Shown: in pieces, positions 3,555-58,391 of the stretch
Layout: each line of letters begins with the position of its first letter
Numbering within the stretch: the first letter of the stretch is position 1
IMG/VR virus record: IMGVR_UViG_3300028482_000001
Location: 1-64,000 of that record
Reading direction: 5' to 3' (one strand)
DNA length: 64,000 nucleotides
From: a virus
Taxonomy: Duplodnaviria; Caudoviricetes
Program-made: the position numbers and the translations under genes
Notes under the pieces: model-generated
Database searches by the model: none
What the model was told of the DNA's origin: nothing
Seen by the model: the letters and a program-made list of their open reading frames with translations, nothing else

Positions 3555-3786
3555 TGTGCACAAGTTTGTGCACAAAATAAACTATGTATAACTATAAATA
3601 ATGTTGCAAAAAAGAAAAAAGTAATGTAAAATATATTAAAAACAGGGATAATTGTGTATAATAGACTTAAAAAGCGTCTATTATAGAGGGGAAAGGGTTG
3701 TTTTATTTATATTAAATCATTACTATATAATGATTTATATTATTAAAGCTTTTGTAAATTTATAGTTTGTGCACATTATGTGTACA
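3555..3786. other. Putative attP region
   Basis: TGTGCACA-type motifs at 3555, 3567, 3768 and 3779; AGTTTGTGCACA direct repeat at 3563 and 3764; these flank the dyad TATAATAGAC-N9-GTCTATTATA (3657-3685) next to the integrase. Confidence 0.55.
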
Positions 3787-4981
3787 AATTTTTAGGTTTT
3801 TTATGGTAAAACATTTATATCAACGAACAATTACACACAATGGGAAGAAGGTTAAGGCATGGTATTTTTGGTTTTTAGACAAAAACGGAAAACGAATTAG
3901 AAGAACTTGTGGCAAAAATGGGAAACCTTGTCTGACAAAAAAAGAGGCACAATCTTTTATAGAATTGTTAGATGATAATGAATTATTAAAAGAGAATATC
4001 ACTTTTAATCAATTTGCAATAAATTTTTTTACAGAATCTTCTTTTTATATAAAAAAGCAAAAACTAAAAGGCTATGAGTATGAAGCACATACACTAAAGG
4101 CTAAACAGAGAATTCTTGATAAGTTTCTTGAAAAATTTGGAGAGAAACTTGTTTCTAATATAACTATTGGAGAAATTGAAAAATGGGTTTTTTCATTGCC
4201 TTATTCTCCTGGTTATTTAAATCGCATAATTGCTGTGATTAATATAGTTCTGTATGAATTGTACAGAGCAGAGCATTTAGACAAAATAATAAAAATGGAT
4301 AAATGTTTAGAAAGAAAAATAAGAAATAAAGGTATTTTATACCCAGATGAAATTAAAAGATTATTTCCTGATACAAAAGAAGAAATTTGCGAAGTGTGGA
4401 GAAATAAAAAAAATACAGATGAAGAAAACTTTACAACAGCAGTTTTGATTTATACAATTCTTACAACAGGTATGAGAGGATGTGAAGGAAGGGCTATTCA
4501 GTATTCTCAATTTATTCAAAAAGATGTTATTCTAATTAATGCAATGCTGAATCACAATGGAGAAAGAGTTGAACATTTAAAAAAGGGGAATGAGATTGAT
4601 AAAAGATGGAGAATTGCGATTCTTCCAGAAAAAACAATTGAATTAATTAATAAAGTGCAAAGGGTAAATCAAAACAATGGAGAAAACGATTATGTTTTTT
4701 CTTTGCATGGCAAACCATTTTCACGAACTTTATTAAATAATAAATTTAAGAAAATCTGTTTAAAAAATGGGATAAACGCAACAGAAAGAAATTTATCAAT
4801 ACACTCGTTGCGTTACACATACAATACGATGATGCGCCATCAAATATCTGGCGAAAGCCTTCGTATGATGCTCGGCCATTTGAATCCGAAAATGACCGAG
4901 TATTATGATAGAGCTAAAATTACAGATAAACTACCTCTATTGTTACAAAACAAAGATGTAATTAATAACATGTGGAATTAA
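3767..4981 (+). CDS. int: Tyrosine recombinase / phage integrase
   Basis: Catalytic motifs TGMRGCE, HSLRYTY, LGH...MTEYY; likely true start MVKHLYQR a few codons downstream. Confidence 0.9.
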   Translation: MCTLCVQIFRFFMVKHLYQRTITHNGKKVKAWYFWFLDKNGKRIRRTCGKNGKPCLTKKEAQSFIELLDDNELLKENITFNQFAINFFTESSFYIKKQKLKGYEYEAHTLKAKQRILDKFLEKFGEKLVSNITIGEIEKWVFSLPYSPGYLNRIIAVINIVLYELYRAEHLDKIIKMDKCLERKIRNKGILYPDEIKRLFPDTKEEICEVWRNKKNTDEENFTTAVLIYTILTTGMRGCEGRAIQYSQFIQKDVILINAMLNHNGERVEHLKKGNEIDKRWRIAILPEKTIELINKVQRVNQNNGENDYVFSLHGKPFSRTLLNNKFKKICLKNGINATERNLSIHSLRYTYNTMMRHQISGESLRMMLGHLNPKMTEYYDRAKITDKLPLLLQNKDVINNMWN

Positions 4982-7035: not shown

Positions 7036-7233
7036 GTGTTTATGAAATTATTAAAAGACTTAGAAACGTTGTTAAAAAACATAGACAAAATGGCATCTAT
7101 AAAACTTATCAACAACAAAAAAACAAAAGAGCTTTCTGCCATTGAATTGTTTTTTCAGGGAAAATCGCAAGAAATTAACATAGAAAGAGATTCTATGTTG
7201 CAAATAATAAAAGATGTTGTGGAGAAAGTTTAA
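7036..7233 (+). CDS. Small hypothetical protein
   Basis: 65 aa ORF directly after promoter. Confidence 0.45.
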   Translation: MFMKLLKDLETLLKNIDKMASIKLINNKKTKELSAIELFFQGKSQEINIERDSMLQIIKDVVEKV

Positions 7234-8239
7234 GATGGATCAATTAAATTTATTTGATATGCCTACTTTTTCAACTGAAAAGAAAATTAGACTTATTGAA
7301 TTGTTTGCAGGAATGGGAACGCAGGCACAAGCATTAGAAAGGTTAGGTGTTGATTTTGAACATCATTTTGTTTGTGAGTTTGATAAGTATGCCATGCAAG
7401 TTTATAACGCAATTCATGGTACTAATTTTGCAACATCAGATGTTACACAAATTCATGCTACTGATTTAAATATTACTGAAAAAGACAAATATACTTATAT
7501 TCTTACATATTCATTTCCCTGCCAGTCGCTTTCATTGGCTGGAAAACAAGAGGGAATGGCAAAGGGAAGTGGAACTCGCAGCGGCTTACTTTGGGAAGTA
7601 GAACGATTGATTAATGAATGTAAAGAGCTTCCAGATGTCTTATTAATGGAAAATGTTCCACAAGTTCATTCTGAAAAAAATATAAACGATTTTGAATCGT
7701 GGCTATCTTTTTTACGATCTAAAGGGTACTACAACTTTTATCAAGACATTAATGCAAAAACTATGGGAGTTCCACAAAATCGTGATAGATGTTTTTGTGT
7801 TTCAATTCTTTCAGATGATTTTATTGATTATGAATTTCCAAAAGAGATAAAACTTCCTTGTGTTATGAAAGATTATTTAGAACCTACTGTAGATGAAAAA
7901 TATTATATCAACAGTCCGAAAGCAAAATAACTAATCGAAAAGTTAATTATGGAAAATAAAATAACAACAGAAGAAACTGTAGATTTATGCTTGAAAAATC
8001 CTAAAAAAATCGAAGTTGCTAATTGTATTAAAGCAAGAGTTGACGCAGGTATTAGTAACCTTCAATCAGATGGTTCGGGTGTAATAGAACCATCTGAAAA
8101 GAAACTCACAGTTTTATTGAGCAATCAAGGAACAAAAATAGAAAAGGAAACTGATATAGCAACTTGTTTAATGGCAAGAGATTATAAAGGTTTTGGAAAT
8201 TAAATCGGAAACGGAGTAATAGAATGTCAGAAGTAATCC
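7214..8239 (+). pseudogene. DNA cytosine-5 methyltransferase N-terminal subunit interrupted by two in-frame TAA codons
   Basis: Motif I (LFAGMG), IV (FPCQ), VI (ENV), VIII (QNRDR); frame continues through TAA at 7928 (KAK*LIEKL) and 8201 (KGFGN*IGNGVIECQK). Confidence 0.8.
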
Positions 8240-10218: not shown

Positions 10219-10858
10219 AGTAAAATTTGTAATAAGAAAAGAAGTTCATGATGAGTTAGTGGAAAAGTTGAATTATAAACCTAAAATATATGTAATTTTT
10301 AATCATGAAGAAGATTTTGTATAAAAAGGATTTAATTCTGCTGTGCATCCGAGAGATGAAAAGGGAAGATTTACAGAAAAAGGAATAATGGAACTATCAG
10401 AAAAAGATAGAGAATTACTTTTAGATTATTTAGAAAAAGAAACTTATGAAGATTTTGAAGGTATAAAAGTTTCTGTTGGAAAAATAGATGCTGTAAGAGA
10501 AGGAAGATATAAAGATGAAGTAGAAACTTGTAAAAAAATAAAGATGTTAGGTTTTGATGTTTATTTATTAAGAGAAAGTTATTCTAATAACAAAAAGGCT
10601 GATATTTTTTATAAATTATTTAATGATAGAGATTTTATGGAAATAAAAAATACTGGGGAACATAAACTAATAACAAGATTTAATGAAACAAAAAAACAAG
10701 CTCCAAGTTGTTTCATTTCTATTAAGGATGAAATAACTTATAACAAGTATAAAAAATTGAAAGATGAAATAAAAAAAGATAATAGGAATGGGTATGTAAT
10801 TATTGAATACAAAGGCAAGTGTAAGGTTTTAAAACAAAAAAAACCCCCGCCCCGATAG
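10211..10858 (+). pseudogene. Putative head-cargo protein with CdiA-like PD-(D/E)xK nuclease domain, split by in-frame TAA at 10322
   Basis: MSKVKFVIRKEVHDELVEK...DFV*KGFNSAVHPRDEKGRF... in one frame; ADIF...FMEIKN nuclease-like motif; track ORF 10343-10858 is the 3' part. Confidence 0.6.
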
Positions 10859-11000
10859 AGGCACAGTTAAGTGCAATATCCGATCCTTCTAGGGAGTTTT
10901 AATAAAACGACCGGGAACTTTTAAGCTCCACCGGGGTTTGGTAATCCTACCTCTTCCTCGGTATACCCGAAAACATATTTTCATGGGAGCGACCCGACCT
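10836..11000 (-). ncRNA. Candidate antisense structured RNA (unit A)
   Basis: Minus-strand TTGACA(11035-11030)-17-TATTAT(11012-11007); several hairpins, AAACCCC/GGGGTTT closing stem, U8 tract. Confidence 0.6.
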
Positions 11001-11054
11001 AATAAGATAATATAGTAGATTAATTTTTTTGTCAATAAAAAAAAGGAGAAATAA

Positions 11055-34556: not shown

Positions 34557-35186
34557 ATGGTAAAATTGGTTATCAAGAAATCTGCTTATGTAGAGCTTTT
34601 AAAATCTTTTGGAGTGAAATACAAATATAAAAAACTCATAAATGGAAAATGGAGATATTACTATGCGGATGATAGGGAAATATCTGTTAGATGGCATGAA
34701 CACAATGCAACAAAACAAGAATTAAGAACTTTTATACACGATACAATAACTAATCCAAATTATGATGAAAATATTAAATTGTGTGATATACCTAGTCATT
34801 TTTCAAACAAACTTAAACTAAAATTAGGGATAAATATAGACAGTTTAACAATGGGAAGTTCTGAATTAAGACATTCGTTAAATCTAAGAAAACATAATAT
34901 ATCATCGGAAGATATTTTATTATTCAGACGAACAATACAAAATAAACATACAATTATTCGTTATGAAGGTACTTCAAGAAGAAGAAAAACTAATTTGATA
35001 AAATTTAAAGGATATTCAAGAGGTACTATTTATTTTATAGCTAGTTATAATAAATACGGAGAATTAAAACTGTTTGATTGTTATAGGGAAGGCAAAATAG
35101 AAAAATCTGTGAGACTTCCATGTACATGCCCGGAAGCTAACGCCCTTGACGATTCACAGCCTATACTTATAGTAACGCTTTTATAA
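34557..35186 (+). CDS. Putative head-cargo protein with PBECR-like RNase domain
   Basis: N-terminal MVKLVIKKS tag; ELRHSL..RKH..SSED pattern; family call tentative. Confidence 0.5.
   Translation: MVKLVIKKSAYVELLKSFGVKYKYKKLINGKWRYYYADDREISVRWHEHNATKQELRTFIHDTITNPNYDENIKLCDIPSHFSNKLKLKLGINIDSLTMGSSELRHSLNLRKHNISSEDILLFRRTIQNKHTIIRYEGTSRRRKTNLIKFKGYSRGTIYFIASYNKYGELKLFDCYREGKIEKSVRLPCTCPEANALDDSQPILIVTLL
35097..35162 (-). ncRNA. Candidate antisense structured RNA (unit B)
   Basis: Minus-strand TTGACA(35197-35192)-17-TACTAT(35174-35169); CTGTGA/TCACAG and GCTTCC/GGAAGT stems, then T-rich tail. Confidence 0.55.
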
Positions 35187-35391
35187 AAAATTGTCAAATA
35201 AAATGTTTTATAAATACGAAGACGTATTTATGAGAGAGTAAAGGTATAGGAATTTCCTACACCTTTGATGGGGTCTCTATTATCCACCCCATAATTATAG
35301 ACAATTATTGTGGTTGACGGTATCGGAATTTGCGAGGTCGTGATTATTGATACAAAGGGGGTATCTGTTCGTTACCTCCTGTTATACGATT

Positions 35392-37487: not shown

Positions 37488-37546
37488 GATGTGTCAAAAA
37501 GACAGTCATTTATCTTTCATGGGATAAGTGGCTGTCTTTTTTTTTT
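37488..37546 (+). promoter_or_regulatory. Late-gene leader terminator, copy 1
   Basis: GATGTG box then AAGACAGTCATTTATC/GATAAGTGGCTGTCTT and T run, between promoter (TTGAAA 37449) and portal. Confidence 0.75.
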
Positions 37547-39186
37547 GTTTAGGAGTAATAAAAATGGGCGGTTTTAAAGAAATTGATATAAAAAAAGAAT
37601 TAAGAAAAAGGGTTGCATATAACCAAAAAGAAAATGGAAACGGTATTTTCAATAAAGATTTTTTCCTGGGGCAAGGAACGCTTGATAATGCAGATTCTAT
37701 TTTTTATGATCCTTATTTTGTGTCTGAAAATGCTTTCCATGGAATTAGAACTATATCACGTGTACAATTCGGGGGAATCCCATGTGCAACTTTAAGGAAA
37801 GTAGCTCAAAAAGCATGGATTATTAATACTTGTATTAATCACATCCAAAAGAAAATCAAACCATTCTTAAAACCTGTAACAGATAGAAATTCTAGGGGCT
37901 TTTTGATTTATAAAAAGGGTGAAGATTTAACAAAGACACAAAAAGCCGATAAAACGAGAGATGAAATTAGAGATTTTATTATTAACTGTGGGAACTTTGA
38001 AGATGCAGATAGAGATGATTTTGTTAAATATTGTATAAAAATTGTGCGTGATAATTTAACTATTGATCAAGTTGCAACAGAATTACAGTACACAAAAGAT
38101 AAAAAGTTATGTGCTTTTTATGCTGTAGATGCTGCAACAGTTGAAAAAGTAATCCCAAATAAAAATGTAAAAACAGATTGGAAATATATTCAAGTTGTAG
38201 ATGGAATTCCTGCGGCCGGATATACAACTGATACAATGCTTTTTGATTTTGAAAATCCAAGAACAGATATTTACCATTCTCAATATGGGTATTCATATGT
38301 AGAACAAGCAGTAGACTTAATAACATCATTTATTAATACTTTTGTATATAATGCCGGAAACTTTACAGAAAACAAACTTCCTAAAGGTATGCTTTTAATT
38401 AGCGGAGATGCAACTTCTGAACGAATTGAAGAAATGGAAGATTATATTGCTGAAATTATGAGTGGTGGGCCACTTAATCAGTGGAGAATCCCAATAATTC
38501 CAGCAGGAGATAAAGAAGCAAGTATTGAATGGAAACAACTAAACGGAAACAACAGAGAAATGGAATTCCAACAATGGAATGACTATTTAACTAGTGCTGT
38601 AGTTGCTATGTTTGGTTGTTCAATGGATGAACTAGGAATTCAAAGCCAAAAATCACAAACAATGTTTGAAAACTCTGGAGCAGACAGAATGTCGGCTAGT
38701 AAATCTTTGTTGTTAGGTGATTTATTAACATTTCTTGAATCTTACATAAATAAAATCGTTAAAAAAATAAATCCTGATTATGTATTAGAATTTGTAGGAT
38801 ATGAAAAAGACAATCCAAACACTGTAGCAGATTTAGACGAAAAAGAAGTTAGAACCTGGAAAAGTATTAACGAAAAAAGAGCAGAAAAAGGATTAGACCC
38901 TATAGACTTGTCAAAGATTGAAAACGGGGCAGACTTACCAATGAATGGTCAACTTGTACAAATGTTCCAGGCTGCACAAGCTCAAACAGGTATGGGCGAT
39001 ATGGGGGGAATGGGTGAAGAAGGAACAGAGGATAATGATGATTGGCAGAATTATGGAGATGAAGAAGGCACTAACGAAGAATCTAACAATGATTACAGTG
39101 GTTTAGAAGATTCCAAAAATACTAATGCTTATAGTGGACTTGAAGAAAGTTCAGAAGATATAAACAAATCATTATTAAGGATTTAG
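37528..39186 (+). CDS. Portal protein
   Basis: DNLTIDQVATE, FENPRTDIY..YGYS; position after TerL; true start probably MGGFKE near 37563. Confidence 0.85.
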   Translation: MAVFFFCLGVIKMGGFKEIDIKKELRKRVAYNQKENGNGIFNKDFFLGQGTLDNADSIFYDPYFVSENAFHGIRTISRVQFGGIPCATLRKVAQKAWIINTCINHIQKKIKPFLKPVTDRNSRGFLIYKKGEDLTKTQKADKTRDEIRDFIINCGNFEDADRDDFVKYCIKIVRDNLTIDQVATELQYTKDKKLCAFYAVDAATVEKVIPNKNVKTDWKYIQVVDGIPAAGYTTDTMLFDFENPRTDIYHSQYGYSYVEQAVDLITSFINTFVYNAGNFTENKLPKGMLLISGDATSERIEEMEDYIAEIMSGGPLNQWRIPIIPAGDKEASIEWKQLNGNNREMEFQQWNDYLTSAVVAMFGCSMDELGIQSQKSQTMFENSGADRMSASKSLLLGDLLTFLESYINKIVKKINPDYVLEFVGYEKDNPNTVADLDEKEVRTWKSINEKRAEKGLDPIDLSKIENGADLPMNGQLVQMFQAAQAQTGMGDMGGMGEEGTEDNDDWQNYGDEEGTNEESNNDYSGLEDSKNTNAYSGLEESSEDINKSLLRI

Positions 39187-39613: not shown

Positions 39614-42600
39614 ATGGGAAAACTAGTAATTAAAAAATCTGTTGCAAATCAAATAACAAGCAAATTAAAAACTCATAAAAATGATGATATAACGCCCGAA
39701 TTTGCAGAAAATCTGCAAAAATCGGACTTATTTTCTGAAAATAAGCAAGTTTCAGTCAAATTACAGTCAAATAAAAATATAGGTGTAACTCCTGATGATT
39801 GTTATTATGATTTAGATAATCCCACAGAGAAATTTTATTATGATTTGAAAATGAAATTTGCTCAGAGTGATAAAGCAGATGATATTGAGAAATCACATAA
39901 ATATATAAGACGATGGAAAATGAATAATGGTGAATGGAGATATGAATATCCAAAAGGGGTTGATAAAAAAATACATTCATTTAGAGATGTAACAACAGCT
40001 CTAACAAATAAGACAACAGAAATAAAAGATATTCAACCATTAACAACAGAAAAACAGATTGATGCAGAGCTTGAAAGATTAACAAAACTTTCAGAAGAAG
40101 GAAAACTTACTTGTCCGGCTTTAGGAAATGCAAATATTTACATTGAAGATATGACTACAGAACATGCAGAAAAAACAAACGGTGTATTTAGAACAAAGGA
40201 AGCTAAAATTCATAAGTTACAATATCTTTCTTTTGTTGAAGATGTTCTTAAAAATGGTATTCTATTTATGAAATCACGTAAATACAATCATGCTTGGTCA
40301 TTAGATAAGATTTCAGAAAGAGAAAGAACTACTTATGGAATTATTAACAAGGTTACATATTTTGACAAAAAGAAAAATAAAAACATAACATGTGGAATGG
40401 AAATTGTTGTTGCGTGGGATAATGAAAGAAAAAGGTTTGTGTTTTCATTTATTGATAGACAAATAAAAAAATCCTTGTTATTTAACAAGGATTTTCAAAC
40501 GACCACTTTCGAGGCGGGTCAGGTAGGTGCTTGTAAAACAGAGGCTTTTTCTACCACCGACTCTATAATACCACATTTGATAAATTTGTCAAGTAGAAAT
40601 GTAAATAAATCCCTTACTTATTCTGGTTATAAATTACAAGGTAGAACTAGACTTTATGGCATGGATATTTCCATTGAAAATAAAAAAGGAAGTTATAGAT
40701 GTGGTGTAGATTCAGATGGTCATAAGTGGGAAATTTTAATGCACTATGATTATGGATATATTAGGGGAACTGTAGGAGTAGACAAAGATCACTTAGATTG
40801 TGTAAGCCCAGAAACAAAAATCTTAATGGCTGATTATACTGAAAAAAGTGCTGCAGATATAAAAGAAGGCGACGAACTTATTGGAATTAAATTAGAAACA
40901 CAACAGCATAAGCAGCGAAAACAGATTAAAACTAAAGTTATTCATGTCAAAAAAGGTATGGATGATATGCTAGATATTACTCTTGAAAATGGTGTAAAAC
41001 TGAGAACTACTAAAGGTCATTTACATTATTATTTTCAAGGTAAGACAAGAGATAAGTATTGGAAGCGTGCTGATGAATTAAAAATTGGTGATAAACTTGT
41101 AATGATTTACAATCATCATAATTTTGAAGAAACAGAAGATTATAAAAAGGGTTATCTCTTTGGAGCTTATATCGGCGATGGATGTTATAATTTTGATGAA
41201 TCAAAACAGGTTTATTGTGATATTAGAAAAGGCGTTGCTTTTATTGATGTTATACATAGAGTAAAACAATATTGGAATGATTTAGGTTTAGAAACATCTA
41301 AGATAAGAATAGACAAACCTAGACAGACAAATTCTTTATTAGCAGATGGTAGAAAAGTTATATCTAAAATGGATTTAGCTATATTATCTATTAGAGGTAT
41401 AAACAAAATAAGATATATTAAATCAATTCTTGTAAAAAATCCTAAATCTTTTGAATGGTGTCGTGGTTATATCGCTGGTTTATTTGATACAGATGGATGC
41501 TTGAATTGTAGACATGAATTCCTGATAACTCAAACCAAAAATCAAGATGAATTTATGAAATTTACAATTGAATGTATTAATAAATTGGGTTATCAAGCAG
41601 TAAAAAGATACAATGAAATTAAATTACATACAGATTATATGGCTGATAATATAACAATGGAGTTTACTCAAATTATTAAGCCAGCTCTTGAAAAGAAAAG
41701 AAACTTTTTAGGCCAAACTTATAGATATGAGCCATTGGAAATTGTGGATATAAAGCCATATACCGGGGAGTTTGTTGCTATTCAGACTGATGAACAGACA
41801 TATATTGCAAATGGACTTGTAACACATAATTGCTATGTTGGACCAGATAAAAACACAAAAAAAGTTTATGTAATTCATCAAAACAATCCTATTACTCATA
41901 AATACGATGAAGATAAATGTATGTTGTGTTTTGAAAGTGCAGATGCAGCCAAAAAAGCATATATGAAACAATATGATAGACCAGGATTTTTTGGAAGTAT
42001 GGAAACATTAACTGTAGAACAATTCAAAACTTTTGTATTTTCAAAACAAGGTAGTAGAATACACAAATCCTTTGATATTGAAATAACTGATATTACTGAA
42101 AATAATAAGCAAAGAAAAGTTGAGCAAGTAGAAAAGGCATTAAACGCTATTTATAATAACAAACCTTTTGTAATTGAGCATATTTCAAAAAAATTAGATT
42201 TCTCAAGAAAATATAATGATATTTTAATGAGAATTACTGATTTTGATAAAAACAAAATTGAAAAAGCTGTACATTCATTGGCATTTACATTAGATACTAA
42301 AGTTAAGGCAAGTAAAGGAGAGGCCTTTGTATATGCCAGTCAGGAAGATTTAACAAATCAGATTGTTAATGAAATTACTGAAAAAACAAAAAAGATTTAT
42401 AATTTCGTAATTTCATTTTTTGACTTACCTGAAATTACTATCGTAAGAAAAGCAAATTTAATTCATAAAGGGAAAATAATATACAATCCTGAAACAGGAG
42501 AACCTGTGAAAAAAGCAGAGTGGGATAAATTTGTAGAAGAATTAGAAAAAATGCTTAATAAAAATTATATGGGGTATGGTGAAAAAATAGTTTTAAAAGG

Positions 42601-43261
42601 TGAAACGTTAGGACTGATTTTAGATCGTCTTGCAAAAACTAATTCTTTTGAAGCAATTCAGAAGAAAAAACTTTCGGACATTGTATATAAACGAAAACAT
42701 TTTGATTGGATTTCGGATGATATAAAAAATTTAAAAACTATTATTGGTGAACCTATATCAAGGGAACGGGCAGCAAGAATTGAAGTTGCGATGCAGAGTG
42801 TAGGGCAAAGAATATCAAGGGTAAAAGATTCTCTTAAAAATGAAATCCAGCAAGTTATTATTGACGGAATTAAAAACAAAGAATCGAAGAGAGTTGTTTC
42901 TCAAAATTTGTTTGATAAGTGTGTAGGACTTAATCGAGATTTTCAAAAAATTGCAGATAGTGAAATCCAAAATACAGTTAATAATGCATATATCAAAGAA
43001 GAAGTTTTTAATTCAGACGAAAATGAAAAAATCTATTTTAAAAGGTTTGAAGTGATAGATGATAACACTTGTTCAAAATGTAAAAAAATAAAAGGGAAAC
43101 TTGCACTTTATAGCAAAGTTCCTTTGGATGATGAACATATCAAGGATGAGTATGCTGATTATGCAATATGGGAAGGTAAAGTAGATGGAGATTTGCCTAT
43201 GGGGATATTGCATCCTTATTGTCGTGGATCGTGGGTTAGGTATTATCCGGAGGTTGATTGA
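39614..43261 (+). CDS. Polyvalent MuF-type head protein: nuclease-like domain, inorganic-pyrophosphatase-like domain split by an intein, C-terminal MuF domain
   Basis: DYGYIRGT.G.D.DHLD|CYVGP..DEDKCML; C-terminal TCSKC...LHPYCRGSW. Confidence 0.75.
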   Translation: MGKLVIKKSVANQITSKLKTHKNDDITPEFAENLQKSDLFSENKQVSVKLQSNKNIGVTPDDCYYDLDNPTEKFYYDLKMKFAQSDKADDIEKSHKYIRRWKMNNGEWRYEYPKGVDKKIHSFRDVTTALTNKTTEIKDIQPLTTEKQIDAELERLTKLSEEGKLTCPALGNANIYIEDMTTEHAEKTNGVFRTKEAKIHKLQYLSFVEDVLKNGILFMKSRKYNHAWSLDKISERERTTYGIINKVTYFDKKKNKNITCGMEIVVAWDNERKRFVFSFIDRQIKKSLLFNKDFQTTTFEAGQVGACKTEAFSTTDSIIPHLINLSSRNVNKSLTYSGYKLQGRTRLYGMDISIENKKGSYRCGVDSDGHKWEILMHYDYGYIRGTVGVDKDHLDCVSPETKILMADYTEKSAADIKEGDELIGIKLETQQHKQRKQIKTKVIHVKKGMDDMLDITLENGVKLRTTKGHLHYYFQGKTRDKYWKRADELKIGDKLVMIYNHHNFEETEDYKKGYLFGAYIGDGCYNFDESKQVYCDIRKGVAFIDVIHRVKQYWNDLGLETSKIRIDKPRQTNSLLADGRKVISKMDLAILSIRGINKIRYIKSILVKNPKSFEWCRGYIAGLFDTDGCLNCRHEFLITQTKNQDEFMKFTIECINKLGYQAVKRYNEIKLHTDYMADNITMEFTQIIKPALEKKRNFLGQTYRYEPLEIVDIKPYTGEFVAIQTDEQTYIANGLVTHNCYVGPDKNTKKVYVIHQNNPITHKYDEDKCMLCFESADAAKKAYMKQYDRPGFFGSMETLTVEQFKTFVFSKQGSRIHKSFDIEITDITENNKQRKVEQVEKALNAIYNNKPFVIEHISKKLDFSRKYNDILMRITDFDKNKIEKAVHSLAFTLDTKVKASKGEAFVYASQEDLTNQIVNEITEKTKKIYNFVISFFDLPEITIVRKANLIHKGKIIYNPETGEPVKKAEWDKFVEELEKMLNKNYMGYGEKIVLKGETLGLILDRLAKTNSFEAIQKKKLSDIVYKRKHFDWISDDIKNLKTIIGEPISRERAARIEVAMQSVGQRISRVKDSLKNEIQQVIIDGIKNKESKRVVSQNLFDKCVGLNRDFQKIADSEIQNTVNNAYIKEEVFNSDENEKIYFKRFEVIDDNTCSKCKKIKGKLALYSKVPLDDEHIKDEYADYAIWEGKVDGDLPMGILHPYCRGSWVRYYPEVD
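40463..40560 (-). ncRNA. Candidate antisense structured RNA (unit C), inside ORF
   Basis: Minus-strand TTGACA(40592-40587)-16-TATTAT(40570-40565) with upstream TG; ends in AAAATCCTTGTT/AACAAGGATTTT hairpin and U tract. Confidence 0.6.
40799..41830 (+). mobile_element. Intein with LAGLIDADG homing endonuclease (344 aa)
   Basis: Starts CVSPET, ends VTHN followed by Cys; GAYIGDG and AGLFDTDG motifs. Confidence 0.9.
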
Positions 43262-47222: not shown

Positions 47223-47275
47223 GATGTGTCTTAAAGGCAGTCATGATGTTTAGTCGTGGCTGCCTTTTTTGTTTT
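47223..47275 (+). promoter_or_regulatory. Late-gene leader terminator, copy 2
   Basis: GATGTG...AAGGCAGTCATGA/TCGTGGCTGCCTT TTTTGTTTT. Confidence 0.8.
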
Positions 47276-47291: not shown

Positions 47292-50200
47292 ATGGGAAAA
47301 ATGGCAAAGATTATTGTTAATTTGAATGAATTAAAAGGATTTTCTTTTTATCGTAATTACATAGAAAAGGCGAAAAAGGGTGAAATGGTTGGTGGTAAAT
47401 ACATGTATAGGGAAGAAGTTCCTGAAAAAGTAAAAACAAGTAAAGGGAAAACTACCGTAATTAGATATAAATATTATTATTTGACAGATATGCTTAAAGA
47501 TAGTGCAGAAAAACTTCTTGAAAATATCGGTAAATTCTTTTTCAAGGGAAATGAAAAGGAAGTAAAAAAAATTGAAAATTCCTATAAAACTCAAAACATA
47601 GAAAAAGATTATGGAGCAGATAAAAAGACGTGGTATCAGCATTGTATGGAATATTTGAGCCACAAAGCAAAATGGGATAAAAGATTTTCAAATAAAGATA
47701 ATGCTGAAAAGTTTAAAACACCTATCAAACAAAAAGTCGTAGAAAAAGTTGATATTCCCGGAATGGAAACAGCAGCAGTAGAAACTCCAGAAATTAAAAC
47801 ATCAATTGAAACAGAGAAAAAAGAGGCAACCTGGAAACCCAACCCATCTTTAATGCGTAAAGTTTGGAGTTTATACAATGGTGTAGAATCTGTTAATAGC
47901 GGAGTTAGCGTTGGTGATACTGTAAATTTTAATGGGCGAAAAGGAACTGTAACAAAAAAAGTAAATGACAATATGGTTATGGTAAGTTTTGAAGATGGAG
48001 GTTTAGGCAGATTCTTTGCAAAAGACTTAAACAAAGTTGAAATTTCAAATGAAAGTGTAACAAATGAAGCTGATGTAAATGGTAAAATACAAGAAGTTGT
48101 AACAGGGCTAAATACTTCTAATGATACAGTTGAAGAAACAACGGATGGACAAGGTAATAAAATTGCAATGTTAGGTAACCAGAATGCAAAAAAGAATTTC
48201 GTTGACTTTATTGATAAGTTTATTACAAATGGTTATAAATCTGATAAGGTTGTAAATCTTTTAGATACAACACCTTTAATTTTGCAAGAACATGGTATTC
48301 CAAATAATCCTATAAGTATAACACCTTCTGTTTTGAAAAAGATTTTAGAAAATGATTTAAATGTTTATCATGGTCATAATATTTCTGTTGATATTTTAAA
48401 GGATCTACCTAATCAACTTGAAAATCCTGTTTATATACTGAAAGGTAAGGATGGGAAAAAGATTATTGTTACAGAATACTATGTAGAAAATAGACCTATA
48501 ATTACAATTCTTGAAATAGATAGAAAAGAAGGTCGTACAAATGTAAATTCTGTAAGAAGTTTATATGATAAACAGAATACTGTATTTATGGAATGGATAA
48601 AAGATGATTCCATAGTTGAATATGAAAATAAAGAAAAAAGTAAGGTGCTATTACAGTCCATAGGTAACCAATATACCAAGGAGGTAACAACACCTTACAT
48701 AAATAATAATACCACAAATATAGAAAATGTCAATAGTGAACATGGGAATTCTATAGCCATGCTTGGTAATGATAATGCTAAGAAAGATTTTGTTGATGTA
48801 AAACAAGGTTTTTCTGAAATGGATAAAAAACTTCTTGCTTTAGCATTGTACAAAGAAAAAGAATTTAATCCAACAATGAATGATTATTATTATTATGAAA
48901 AATTAAGATATAAATATCCTAATTTAGCTTCTAAAGGTAGTATTTATTCAATTATGGAAGAATTAAAAGGAATAGATGTTAAAAATATAAACCTTGATGA
49001 AGTAAAAGAGTATGTAGAAAAGATTAAAGGTGGGGGTGATGAACCGCCAAAGAATGATGCAAAAAAGAATTTCGTTGACGGATTGTCGCTTGATACAGAG
49101 TTAATTGCAAATGCAAATAATTCTTCATATATGTATGAAGCTGGAGATGCTATTAATCGTGAATATCTTGGCGGAATTGAGGCTATCAATTCATGGGATT
49201 TGACAGATGAAGAAAAACAGAAAGCTAAACAAAAACTTTTTGAACTTACAACGGAACAGTTAAAAGCCCAGGCAAAGGCTATATCTGTAACAGTCGCAGG
49301 ACCAGCTAGGAAAGTAAGTGGAAGTGATACAGCATTTGATAAAGTTCAGAAAATCCGTGGGAAAATTAAAGAACTTCTTGATACAATAAGAGCTAAAAAT
49401 AATACAAATGTTCAGAAACAGGAAATGAAAGATTTTACAACAGCAGCAACAGAGGCCATGAATAATAATAAACTTGCTTTTGTGTATGATGGTAAAGTTT
49501 ATTATCGTGGTAATATAAAATCAAGCTCTTGGAGTGAAATAAATCATATTCCAGAAGTTGATGAAACAAAGACTGTTGATGAAAAGAAAAAAGAGTTGAA
49601 GAAACTCAAAGAAGAAAGTAAGAATCTCGGTTTTGCTAATCCAGAGAACACAAAAACCCTTGATAGAATTGAAAAACTTAAAAATGAAATTGCATATATG
49701 AATACTGATGAATGGCAGAATCGACATAATGCCATGCTCGGTAATCAAAACGCAGCAAAACCATTTTCAGAAGAAGAAACAAAAAAAGAACAAAAGAAAG
49801 TAAAGGAAACAAGAGAAAAAGCAGGACTACCTAAAATAGGAATAAATTATGGGGAGAGAGTTTCTGCTATGGAAGATTCAGTTTCTCTTAATCCTAATGC
49901 GGAAAACTATGCTTATAAAGATACAGGTTATATTGCAGGTTCTCAAAAAGAAAAGATTCAAGACTTTTGGAAAATAAAAAAGGAAAGTGGTGAAGGAACA
50001 AGTATAGAAGAAATAGATTGGAATACACTTGAAGAAAATCCTAGATATGCAGAACAACAAATTACAAAATCAAATATTCTTGGAAATATTGATTATAATT
50101 CATTCAAAGAAAAAGGAATGGATTCTAGGGCAGCGTATTTAGCAAGTAGAGTATTTGCCGCAATTCCAAAAGAACCTACAGGTCATGATGTTACTGCTCG

Positions 50201-53198: not shown

Positions 53199-53463
53199 AT
53201 TCAACTACAAGTTGAGTGATTTTAAAAAAAATATTAGATAATGGTTTTCTAGGAGATATTATGAATAAAAAAATATTAAAATTAATTACAGATGTTATTG
53301 CAACAAGGTTCGCAGAAGTCTTGGATTTAATTGATCCAGAATGGGATAAAAAAGCAAGGCAATTTGAAGGTGAATGGAAAGATTTTGGTTTTAATTTGAT
53401 TTATGAAAAACTGACAGAAGAAAAGTAGACATAAATAGTTTTATTAAGTATAATATTTATAAT

Positions 53464-53517
53464 GATGTGCGAGAAGGCAGTCATAACCTAAGAGGTTGTG
53501 GCTGCCTTTTTTGTTTT
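53464..53517 (+). promoter_or_regulatory. Late-gene leader terminator, copy 3
   Basis: TAGACA(53426)-17-TATAAT, then GATGTG...AAGGCAGTCATAACC/GGTTGTGGCTGCCTT TTTTGTTTT. Confidence 0.8.
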
Positions 53518-58254: not shown

Positions 58255-58314
58255 AATTACAATAATTATTGTTGACAAAAAAAATATTATGTAATAAAAT
58301 TAGTTTATAGTGTT

Positions 58315-58368
58315 GATGTGCTAAAAGGCAGTCATGACATTTAGTCGTGGCTGCCTTTTTTGTTTTTT
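58315..58368 (+). promoter_or_regulatory. Late-gene leader terminator, copy 5
   Basis: TTGACA(58272)-17-TAAAAT, GATGTG...AAGGCAGTCATGAC/GTCGTGGCTGCCTT TTTTGTTTT. Confidence 0.8.
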
Positions 58369-58391
58369 AAATCTTTTTTTGGTGCTAAAAA

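Follow-up and report, generated by a model that had tools for sequence, protein, structure and literature searches.

The window analysed in this study, that is the whole stretch of 64,000 nucleotides, comprises the first 64 kb of IMGVR_UViG_3300028482_000001, an IMG/VR virus record of the Caudoviricetes. This record, 80,555 bp long and bounded by terminal repeats, is that of a complete phage; the G+C content of the window is 29.8%. Because the record is complete and encodes a tyrosine integrase (3767-4981) and a portal protein (37528-39186), we regard the phage as a temperate tailed phage. Most of the sequencing runs with near-identical parts come from metagenomes of bovine gut or faeces. The subject of this study is one gene of this phage, which encodes a polyvalent cargo protein (P0001), and within it a cassette that carries a MuF_C domain and has a predicted antisense small-RNA gene on the strand opposite its tail.

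The cargo gene and its MuF_C cassette

P0001 starts with a shared N-terminal domain, continues with variable cassettes and ends in a conserved C-terminal half, in which HEWFH (aa 1337-1341) and the Pfam domain LPD1 (aa 1533-1609) are located. Pfam also assigns MuF_C (PF18819) to aa 359-451 with an E-value of 2.8e-18 and 66.4 bits, the cut-off being 27.6. HEWFHGFD (aa 1337-1344) is invariant across 17 homologues, and none of the Pfam peptidase families matched P0001. A zincin-like phage-type metallopeptidase (MPTase), which has HExxH and an Asp three residues downstream, has been described for polyvalent proteins (Iyer et al. 2017, PMC5512222). HEWFHGFD of P0001 fits this description because its Asp lies three residues past HEWFH.

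The homologue family was taken from a search of 5.8 billion proteins. Its members have a common N-terminal domain of about 200 aa and a common C-terminal half, and between them lies a variable middle in which ART, LPD3, PBECR1/2, inorganic pyrophosphatase (InPase) or MuF_C alternate, which is the mosaic architecture expected among orthologues of a polyvalent protein. In P0001, MuF_C, LPD1, the HExxH half and further cassettes bring several unrelated effector domains together in one very large polypeptide of 1644 aa. Its gene lies among phage virion and late genes, with the portal gene and the gene of a Mu-F-domain protein (39614-43261) in the same complete phage. The cargo protein is a member of the known polyvalent class, and its mosaicism is of the known type.

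An exhaustive HMMER search with the cassette retrieved 1129 MuF_C relatives at E ≤ 0.001. In an alignment of 45 sequences, His 73 of the cassette was invariant, and Asn 130 and Ser 134 were at least 90% conserved. Conservation of Gly 169 was likewise at least 90%, and YHGH around His 73 was invariant among close homologues. The AlphaFold2 (AF2) model of the cassette, built on a deep alignment, reached a predicted local distance difference test score (pLDDT) of 86.6, whereas a 9-sequence alignment had given only 38.6. In this model an N-terminal helix is followed by strands, the chain is folded to about residue 170 with its last helix at residues 158-167 (EKSKVLLQSI), and it is disordered from about residue 171. 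The top structural neighbours are almost all BECR/RelE-type toxins (BrnT, RelE, ParE, YoeB, HigB, colicin D/E5 and CdiA-CT) with modest Z-scores of 3.4-5.8, namely 5.8 for BrnT, 5.6 for the CdiA-CT toxin domain, 4.9 for RelE and 4.7 for colicin D. Foldseek gave no match at E ≤ 0.001, and a sequence search of the PDB returned nothing relevant. The alignment and the model are consistent with a BECR-fold MuF_C RNase, the RNase activity being predicted.

Distant relatives of the cassette (25-35% identity), which include stand-alone proteins, have in common the C-terminal motif NKEK-x4-L-x-S-x-GLQLP-x-E-x-T...I......NV(N/K). By alignment, the tail peptide of the cassette is this ancient, family-wide C-terminal motif of MuF_C. 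The conservation of the tail is accounted for at the protein level; therefore it gives no evidence that an RNA encoded opposite the tail is conserved or travels with the cassette.

Table 1. Features of the P0001 gene, its MuF_C cassette and the predicted antisense units, in window positions
Feature	Position	Strand	Basis
Polyvalent cargo protein gene (P0001), 1644 aa	47292-52226	+	Open reading frame, Pfam, homologue alignment
Promoter-like site of the cargo gene, TTGAAA-17-TAATAT, and leader terminator hairpin (47233-47267), before the start codon	47186-47267	+	Sequence scan
Joint 1, IAMLGNQNAKKNFVD; right half (AKKNFVDF...) forms the first, N-terminal helix of the RNase domain	48162-48206	+	Peptide motif, alignment, AF2
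Folded MuF_C / BECR-type RNase domain (predicted), cassette residues ~7-170, pLDDT >89; Pfam core 48366-48644	48177-48668	+	Pfam, alignment, AF2, structural neighbours
Predicted antisense terminator U-tract, UUUUUUCUUU on the minus strand; plus strand encodes KEKS	48630-48639	-	Sequence after stem
Predicted antisense hairpin, 15-bp stem with two G-U pairs, inner 3+4-bp stem, 7-nt loop UAUUGGU	48640-48698	-	Folding
Predicted antisense promoter, sigma-70-type, TTGACA-N11-TGTGG-TATTAT	48706-48733	-	Sequence scan, recoding tests
Joint 2, IAMLGNDNAKKDFVD; breakpoint of the natural linker 2-linker 4 junction	48753-48797	+	Peptide motif, metagenome contig
Partial joint 3, NDAKKNFVD; 23-nt exact DNA repeat (49057-49079) of 48184-48206	49053-49079	+	Repeat search
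Joint 4, NAMLGNQNAAK, where the conserved C-terminal half begins	49728-49760	+	Peptide motif, contig
Predicted sister unit C in the neighbouring cargo gene: TTGACA-N11-TGTGGTATTAT promoter, then terminator hairpin and U-tract	40467-40592	-	Promoter scan, folding, composite control

A predicted antisense unit opposite the cassette tail

The predicted antisense promoter has its -35 element TTGACA at 48733-48728 and its -10 element TATTAT at 48711-48706, separated by a 16-nt spacer that ends in TGTGG, and it scores 11/12 plus the TG of an extended -10. On the coding strand it reads NNNTTNIENVN and relies on rarely used codons: GTC, which makes up 2.6% of Val codons, and ACC, which makes up 3.9% of Thr codons, each the rarest for its amino acid. 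The promoter lies 7 nt upstream of the stem, and the transcript is predicted to start at about 48698-48700, at the stem foot. On the minus strand the hairpin has a minimum free energy of -27.9 kcal/mol, which none of 200 dinucleotide shuffles equalled (z -6.4); on the plus strand the value is -19.6 kcal/mol (z -5.3). The gap between the strands arises because two positions of the stem (48648/48690 and 48650/48688) form G-U pairs on the minus strand and face each other as C-A on the plus strand. These two positions and the 15-bp stem had been described correctly in the original prediction, which had also placed the MuF_C domain, the hairpin, the promoter and the flanking motifs where we find them. 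Thus a promoter of its own opposite the target gene and an intrinsic terminator are both present as predicted signals, at the level of sequence only.

The left arm of the hairpin encodes the last helix of the domain (SKVLLQ), and the loop, the right arm (VTTPY) and the promoter map to the disordered spacer. Rfam gave no family for the hairpin unit either at the gathering threshold or at E ≤ 10. The unit is single-copy in the 80,555-bp genome, by which a multicopy element like the Rickettsia palindromic element was excluded. No tandem-repeat array was found in or near it, by which a ToxI-like array was excluded.

Recoding tests were used for the question of chance, in which synonymous codons were resampled with the phage's own codon usage. 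Not one of 3000 recodings of the local 29 codons folded as well (mean -11.9, best -24.1), and 12 of 20000 gave an equally good promoter. The hairpin is the most stable structure within any open reading frame of at least 150 aa in the window. Intragenic promoters scoring at least 11/12 occur only twice in the window, at 48733 (unit D, the unit at the MuF_C cassette) and at 40592 (unit C). Both are on the minus strand of cargo genes, and both lead into a hairpin with a U-tract (-27.9 and -18.7 kcal/mol, respectively). Units C and D have 17 specified promoter bases in common, and their spacers are unrelated. Because the two promoters are read in different codon phases, as NNTT...NVN in unit D and as IIPH...LSS in unit C, their likeness is at the nucleotide and not at the peptide level.

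The decisive test was a composite control that takes promoter, hairpin and U-tract jointly. Of the 685 recoded windows, 607 were free of such units, 76 contained a single one and only 2 contained a pair; none of the 80 units that arose by chance was below -17.5 kcal/mol. We conclude from these controls, which are statistically solid, that the promoter-hairpin-terminator unit is a selected feature with a predicted transcript.

Several observations on the unit and on similar sites may be added. The right arm of the coding hairpin contains a perfect Shine-Dalgarno-like sequence, AAGGAGGT (48678-48685), with no start codon at a usable distance; the predicted antisense RNA would therefore expose CCUCCUU, which resembles an anti-Shine-Dalgarno sequence. 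The loop region of the hairpin at 48661-48679 (SIGNQYTK) resembles the joint motif at 48172-48190 (MLGNQNAK), 15 of 19 nt being identical, and the predicted RNA therefore has 10 nt (UGGUUACCUA) complementary to joint 1 too. Among the intragenic hairpins of the window, the one that ranks second in stability (-25.7 to -26.2 kcal/mol) lies at 7504-7575 on the plus strand in a C5-methylase gene (7214-7930). Unit B, at 35040-35197 on the minus strand, has a weaker promoter, TTGACA-17-TACTAT, and the RNA downstream shows no significant folding (z +0.85). A third strong minus-strand promoter, TTGACA-17-TATTAT, is intergenic (11035-11007). It leads to a G+C-rich candidate RNA of about 160 nt (10843-11035, minus strand) that ends in a stem and U8, with a fold z of only -1.5, and Rfam at the gathering threshold gave no family in the window.

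Cassette exchange, joints and neighbouring features

Homologue P0015 is without exactly the 197-aa unit that extends from joint 1 to joint 2; its N-terminus is 78% identical to that of P0001 and its next cassette 81% identical. An allele lacking just the segment between the repeats had been foreseen in the original prediction. In other homologues the cassette sits in other surroundings: behind another domain in P0019 (LPD3, according to a precomputed Pfam list), within SNF2/methylase polyvalent proteins in P0034 and P0035, and in further contexts in P0022, P0041, P0089 and P0090. A metagenome contig of 5174 nt runs through the cassette, after which position 48754 (joint 2) is fused to 49730 (joint 4). 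Another contig has a second copy of the 30-nt promoter-coding sequence ahead of the cassette, as in P0019, and one contig spans the hairpin at about 97% identity. These alignments support the view that the segment is a discrete, exchangeable effector cassette.

The tail is kept in all nine of the nine complete cassettes. Nevertheless, the homologues show that the nuclease and the putative RNA-coding tail are separable. P0026 equals P0023, to which its flanks are 99-100% identical, minus the MuF_C core alone, and its retained part begins at the U-tract codons. P0042 has two tails and no MuF_C core, and in P0019 and P0067 the promoter-coding peptide lies behind a different domain. Because nuclease and tail are separable, the proposal that effector and RNA form one insertable module is supported only in part: the exchangeable cassette holds, and the inseparability of its two parts does not.

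A search of viral contigs with the cassette found no relative, and degenerate DNA patterns for the tail had no match in viral or metagenome contigs. In genome contigs, the degenerate tail pattern hit one Chloroflexota locus, presumably a chance match. GenBank phages gave no DNA match, and at the protein level only a 26%-identical Pasteurella phage protein. In 48 IMG/VR loci from the family alignment the joints were present and no close cassette was found, and a scan of eight of these loci for hairpin and promoter yielded nothing comparable. The other genomes surveyed contained no look-alike.

The MuF_C cassette is flanked by two AMLGNxNAKK motifs, and joints of the form H-x-N-x-x-A-M-x-G-N-x-N-A-K-K set it apart from the adjoining parts of the protein. 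The original prediction had described them as peptide and DNA repeats that bracket the cassette, and they are indeed repeats as peptides. As DNA they are not: joints 1 and 2 are identical at 32 of 45 nt, the longest identical run is 5 nt, and nearly every synonymous site differs. Joints 2 and 4 have an 8-nt DNA run in common. The joint motif, H-x-N-R-S-x-A-M-x-G-N-x-N-A-x-K, was found in related polyvalent proteins of IMG/VR phages, and because it is retained in phages of 35-59% G+C we regard the joints as conserved as protein. In distant polyvalent proteins (loci L003-L011 and L023-L025) the motif sometimes occurs two or three times per protein, and several homologues lack the left joint. In these alignments the joints are generic, family-wide protein boundaries and are not specific to the MuF_C cassette. 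Literature searches on the joint motif found nothing relevant, and we found no reference to a joint of this kind in Iyer et al. 2017 (PMC5512222), where the word 'linker' does not occur.

It is most plausible that the joints would signal processing sites or boundaries to the putative HExxH metallopeptidase half of the same protein. Related phages gain, lose and swap cassettes at the joints, as the homologue architectures and one metagenomic junction show. The conserved AM-x-GN-x-NAKK joints are candidate processing sites of the polyvalent metallopeptidase and candidate breakpoints of cassette exchange, both so far only postulated.

Other parts of the cargo proteins and of the genome also show recurring designs. 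The LPD1/peptidase-type and the SNF2/methylase-type polyvalent proteins (P0001; P0034, P0035 and P0042) have in common the N-terminal domain of about 200 aa (aa 1-200 of P0001) and a C-terminal end, SLP(L/M)FF(I/F)xNGRFYI(R/N)K, which makes up the last 20 aa or so. The N-terminal domain and the C-terminal end common to both types are possibly virion-targeting signals. The neighbouring 1215-aa cargo protein (39614-43261) contains an intein at 40826-41831 (Intein_splicing and LAGLIDADG_3, aa ~405-739), which sits in its InPase domain, and the end of this protein is a Phage_Mu_F domain. At 53426-53511 and 58272-58375 of the window and at 65510 and 78425 of the genome, strong plus-strand promoters each lead into leader terminators that resemble one another (AAGGCAGTC...GGCTGCCTTTTT). 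This leader design also precedes the cargo gene (47233-47267).

Readings of the antisense unit

The reading we prefer, and hold to be somewhat probable, is that the locus encodes an exchangeable RNase cassette of a virion-delivered polyvalent cargo protein, with an overprinted antisense small-RNA gene that acts as a cis-antisense brake. The small gene would lie opposite the codons for the final helix of the RNase domain and for the disordered spacer after it, and its sigma-70-type promoter with the extended -10 would fire in the host. Transcription would end at the 59-nt hairpin and its U-tract, which would serve as a built-in terminator, and would yield an RNA of about 70 nt, made up of a 0-2-nt leader, the hairpin and the U-tail, and fully complementary to the cargo mRNA. 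In the lysogen and in early infection this RNA would pair with read-through cargo transcripts via loop-loop contact. Such contact is proposed because both strands fold as hairpins, and the 7-nt loop UAUUGGU contains the YUNR-like UUGG. The RNA-mRNA duplex would trigger cleavage or a translation block, and the potentially toxic RNase-bearing protein would stay off until antiterminated late transcription swamps the RNA. The cargo gene's own promoter and leader terminator fit such read-through control.

Some observations weigh against the cis-antisense brake. The best intragenic hairpins in 5 fully recoded windows ranged from -26.8 to -21.3 kcal/mol, and because recoded windows reach -26.8 the hairpin alone is only borderline window-wide. 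Its sequence is partly constrained by the protein, as the left arm codes for a confidently modelled helix and the tail is the old MuF_C motif. P0026 and P0042 carry the tail without the nuclease, and P0089 and P0090 are without the NVN that encodes the -35 element. Of the other sister units claimed in the original prediction, the one at about 35160 (unit B) lacks a significant fold and another lies between genes, and the four claimed units are thus not equivalent. Lastly, the peptide-only tests of pairing capacity are without power. By this proxy all tail variants can encode 14-15 of the 15 pairs, and so can 57% of single-step substitutions and 20% of distant homologues encode them. Peptide-only covariation proxies were rejected as powerless, as these two controls pass too often.

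The original prediction leads to a different reading, in which the hairpin RNA neutralises the MuF_C RNase in the producer in a type III-like fashion, either as an inhibitor that binds the protein or as a decoy substrate, and the pair moves together. An RNA at the 3' edge of a BECR toxin-like RNase would suit such an antitoxin, as would the retention of the tail in every complete cassette and the second unit in another cargo gene. We nevertheless consider it unlikely, for the RNA is not of the tandem-repeat, ToxI-like kind, P0026 and P0042 retain the tail in the absence of the nuclease, the protein family accounts for the conservation of the tail, and position is the sole link between RNA and protein.

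The unit could also be a coincidence, namely an AT-rich coding sequence with a chance promoter-like string and a hairpin that yields no consequential RNA. Promoter-like sites in the window are no commoner than in shuffles, one of the 5 recoded windows reached -26.8 kcal/mol with its best intragenic hairpin, the U-tract follows from Lys/Glu/Asn codons, and the left arm and NVN are constrained by the protein. Chance would, however, have to produce two units in one window, which only 2 of 685 recoded windows did and with none as stable, and it would have to place an identical 17-base promoter pattern in two reading frames, build the promoter on the rarest Val and Thr codons, and set the predicted start exactly at the stem foot. 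We therefore regard coincidence as improbable.

It is quite improbable that the inverted repeat acts as a sense-strand or DNA element with an incidental promoter, either on the mRNA, by inter-domain ribosome pausing or as an RNase III site, or on the DNA, by a hairpin or cruciform, template switching and cassette shuffling. The plus strand folds well too (z -5.3), the right arm has the strong internal AAGGAGGT, and the repeat is located at a cassette boundary, where rearrangements happen. However, the two G-U pairs speak for the minus strand, as do the U-tract and the promoter, the observed breakpoints fall in the AMLGN joints or at the domain edge and not in the stem, and the repeat is single-copy in the genome. 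Highly improbable is a selfish palindromic element of the Rickettsia type, inserted in frame and tolerated as a linker peptide, as the tail behind non-MuF_C sequence in P0026 and twice in P0042 might suggest, since there is one copy in the 80.5-kb genome, hundreds of distant MuF_C domains, some of them stand-alone, natively end in the tail motif, and P0026 is a simple deletion of the domain core.

Read as a cis-antisense brake, the unit can be compared with known systems. Two phage RNAs, OOP of lambda (directed against cII) and Sar of P22 (directed against ant), are short cis-antisense RNAs, each of which has a promoter and a terminator to itself. Like them, the predicted RNA is about 70 nt long, has its own sigma-70 promoter and a body that is little more than a terminator hairpin, and is fully complementary to an mRNA of a temperate phage. 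Unlike OOP and Sar, it is located within the coding sequence of a late cargo gene, where it is overprinted on the codons of a helix and a linker, its design is repeated in a second cargo gene, and it has no Rfam match. RNA antitoxins are used by type I (hok/sok-like) and type III (ToxIN) toxin-antitoxin systems. The locus resembles these systems in that a toxic function, here a predicted BECR RNase fold, lies beside a predicted small antisense or structured RNA with a constitutive promoter. It differs from type I systems, whose toxin is a small, usually hydrophobic membrane peptide, in that the target is the gene of a 1644-aa multidomain virion protein of which the toxin is one domain. It differs from ToxIN in having no repeat-array RNA and in that the putative RNA-coding tail also occurs without the nuclease.

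On the protein side, the closest counterparts are the polyvalent proteins of phages and conjugative elements described by Iyer, Burroughs, Anand, de Souza and Aravind in 2017 (PMC5512222), which include the Helicobacter prophage protein jhp1044 with its mosaic PBECR arrays. Like these, P0001 is a giant late-region protein with MuF_C/PBECR, a putative HExxH peptidase half and LPD1, and effector domains have been gained, lost and shuffled among its orthologues. Unlike the proteins in that survey, it has a sharply conserved AM-x-GN-x-NAKK joint at its cassette boundaries and a predicted RNA gene opposite one of them. The MuF polymorphic toxins of temperate phages have exchangeable C-terminal toxin domains and protein immunity genes (Jamet et al. 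2017, PMC5576092). They resemble P0001 as phage head-associated carrier proteins with exchangeable toxin domains, whereas P0001 is a multi-cassette protein with joints and an embedded predicted antisense unit; Jamet et al. mention neither linkers nor antisense RNA. The joint motif of P0001 is unusually clear, and the predicted antisense small-RNA gene overprinted on its cassette tail is statistically solid.

A broader generalisation would be that phage cargo proteins carry domain-level toxin-antisense modules, in which each dangerous cassette brings its own overprinted small-RNA gene that silences or neutralises it in the producer and is exchanged with it as a unit at the joints. We consider this generalisation doubtful. 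If true, it would define a new class of RNA-guarded, recombining effector cassettes.

In conclusion, the locus bears on how a producing cell is protected from toxic cargo domains, polyvalent cargo proteins being the first weapons injected by the phage. Should the antisense RNA prove real, it would show that a protein helix and a linker can accommodate a whole overprinted RNA gene while the protein is left undisturbed, and that annotation by open reading frames only misses regulators hidden within giant genes. In that case, temperate phages may guard their toxic late genes by built-in antisense brakes.

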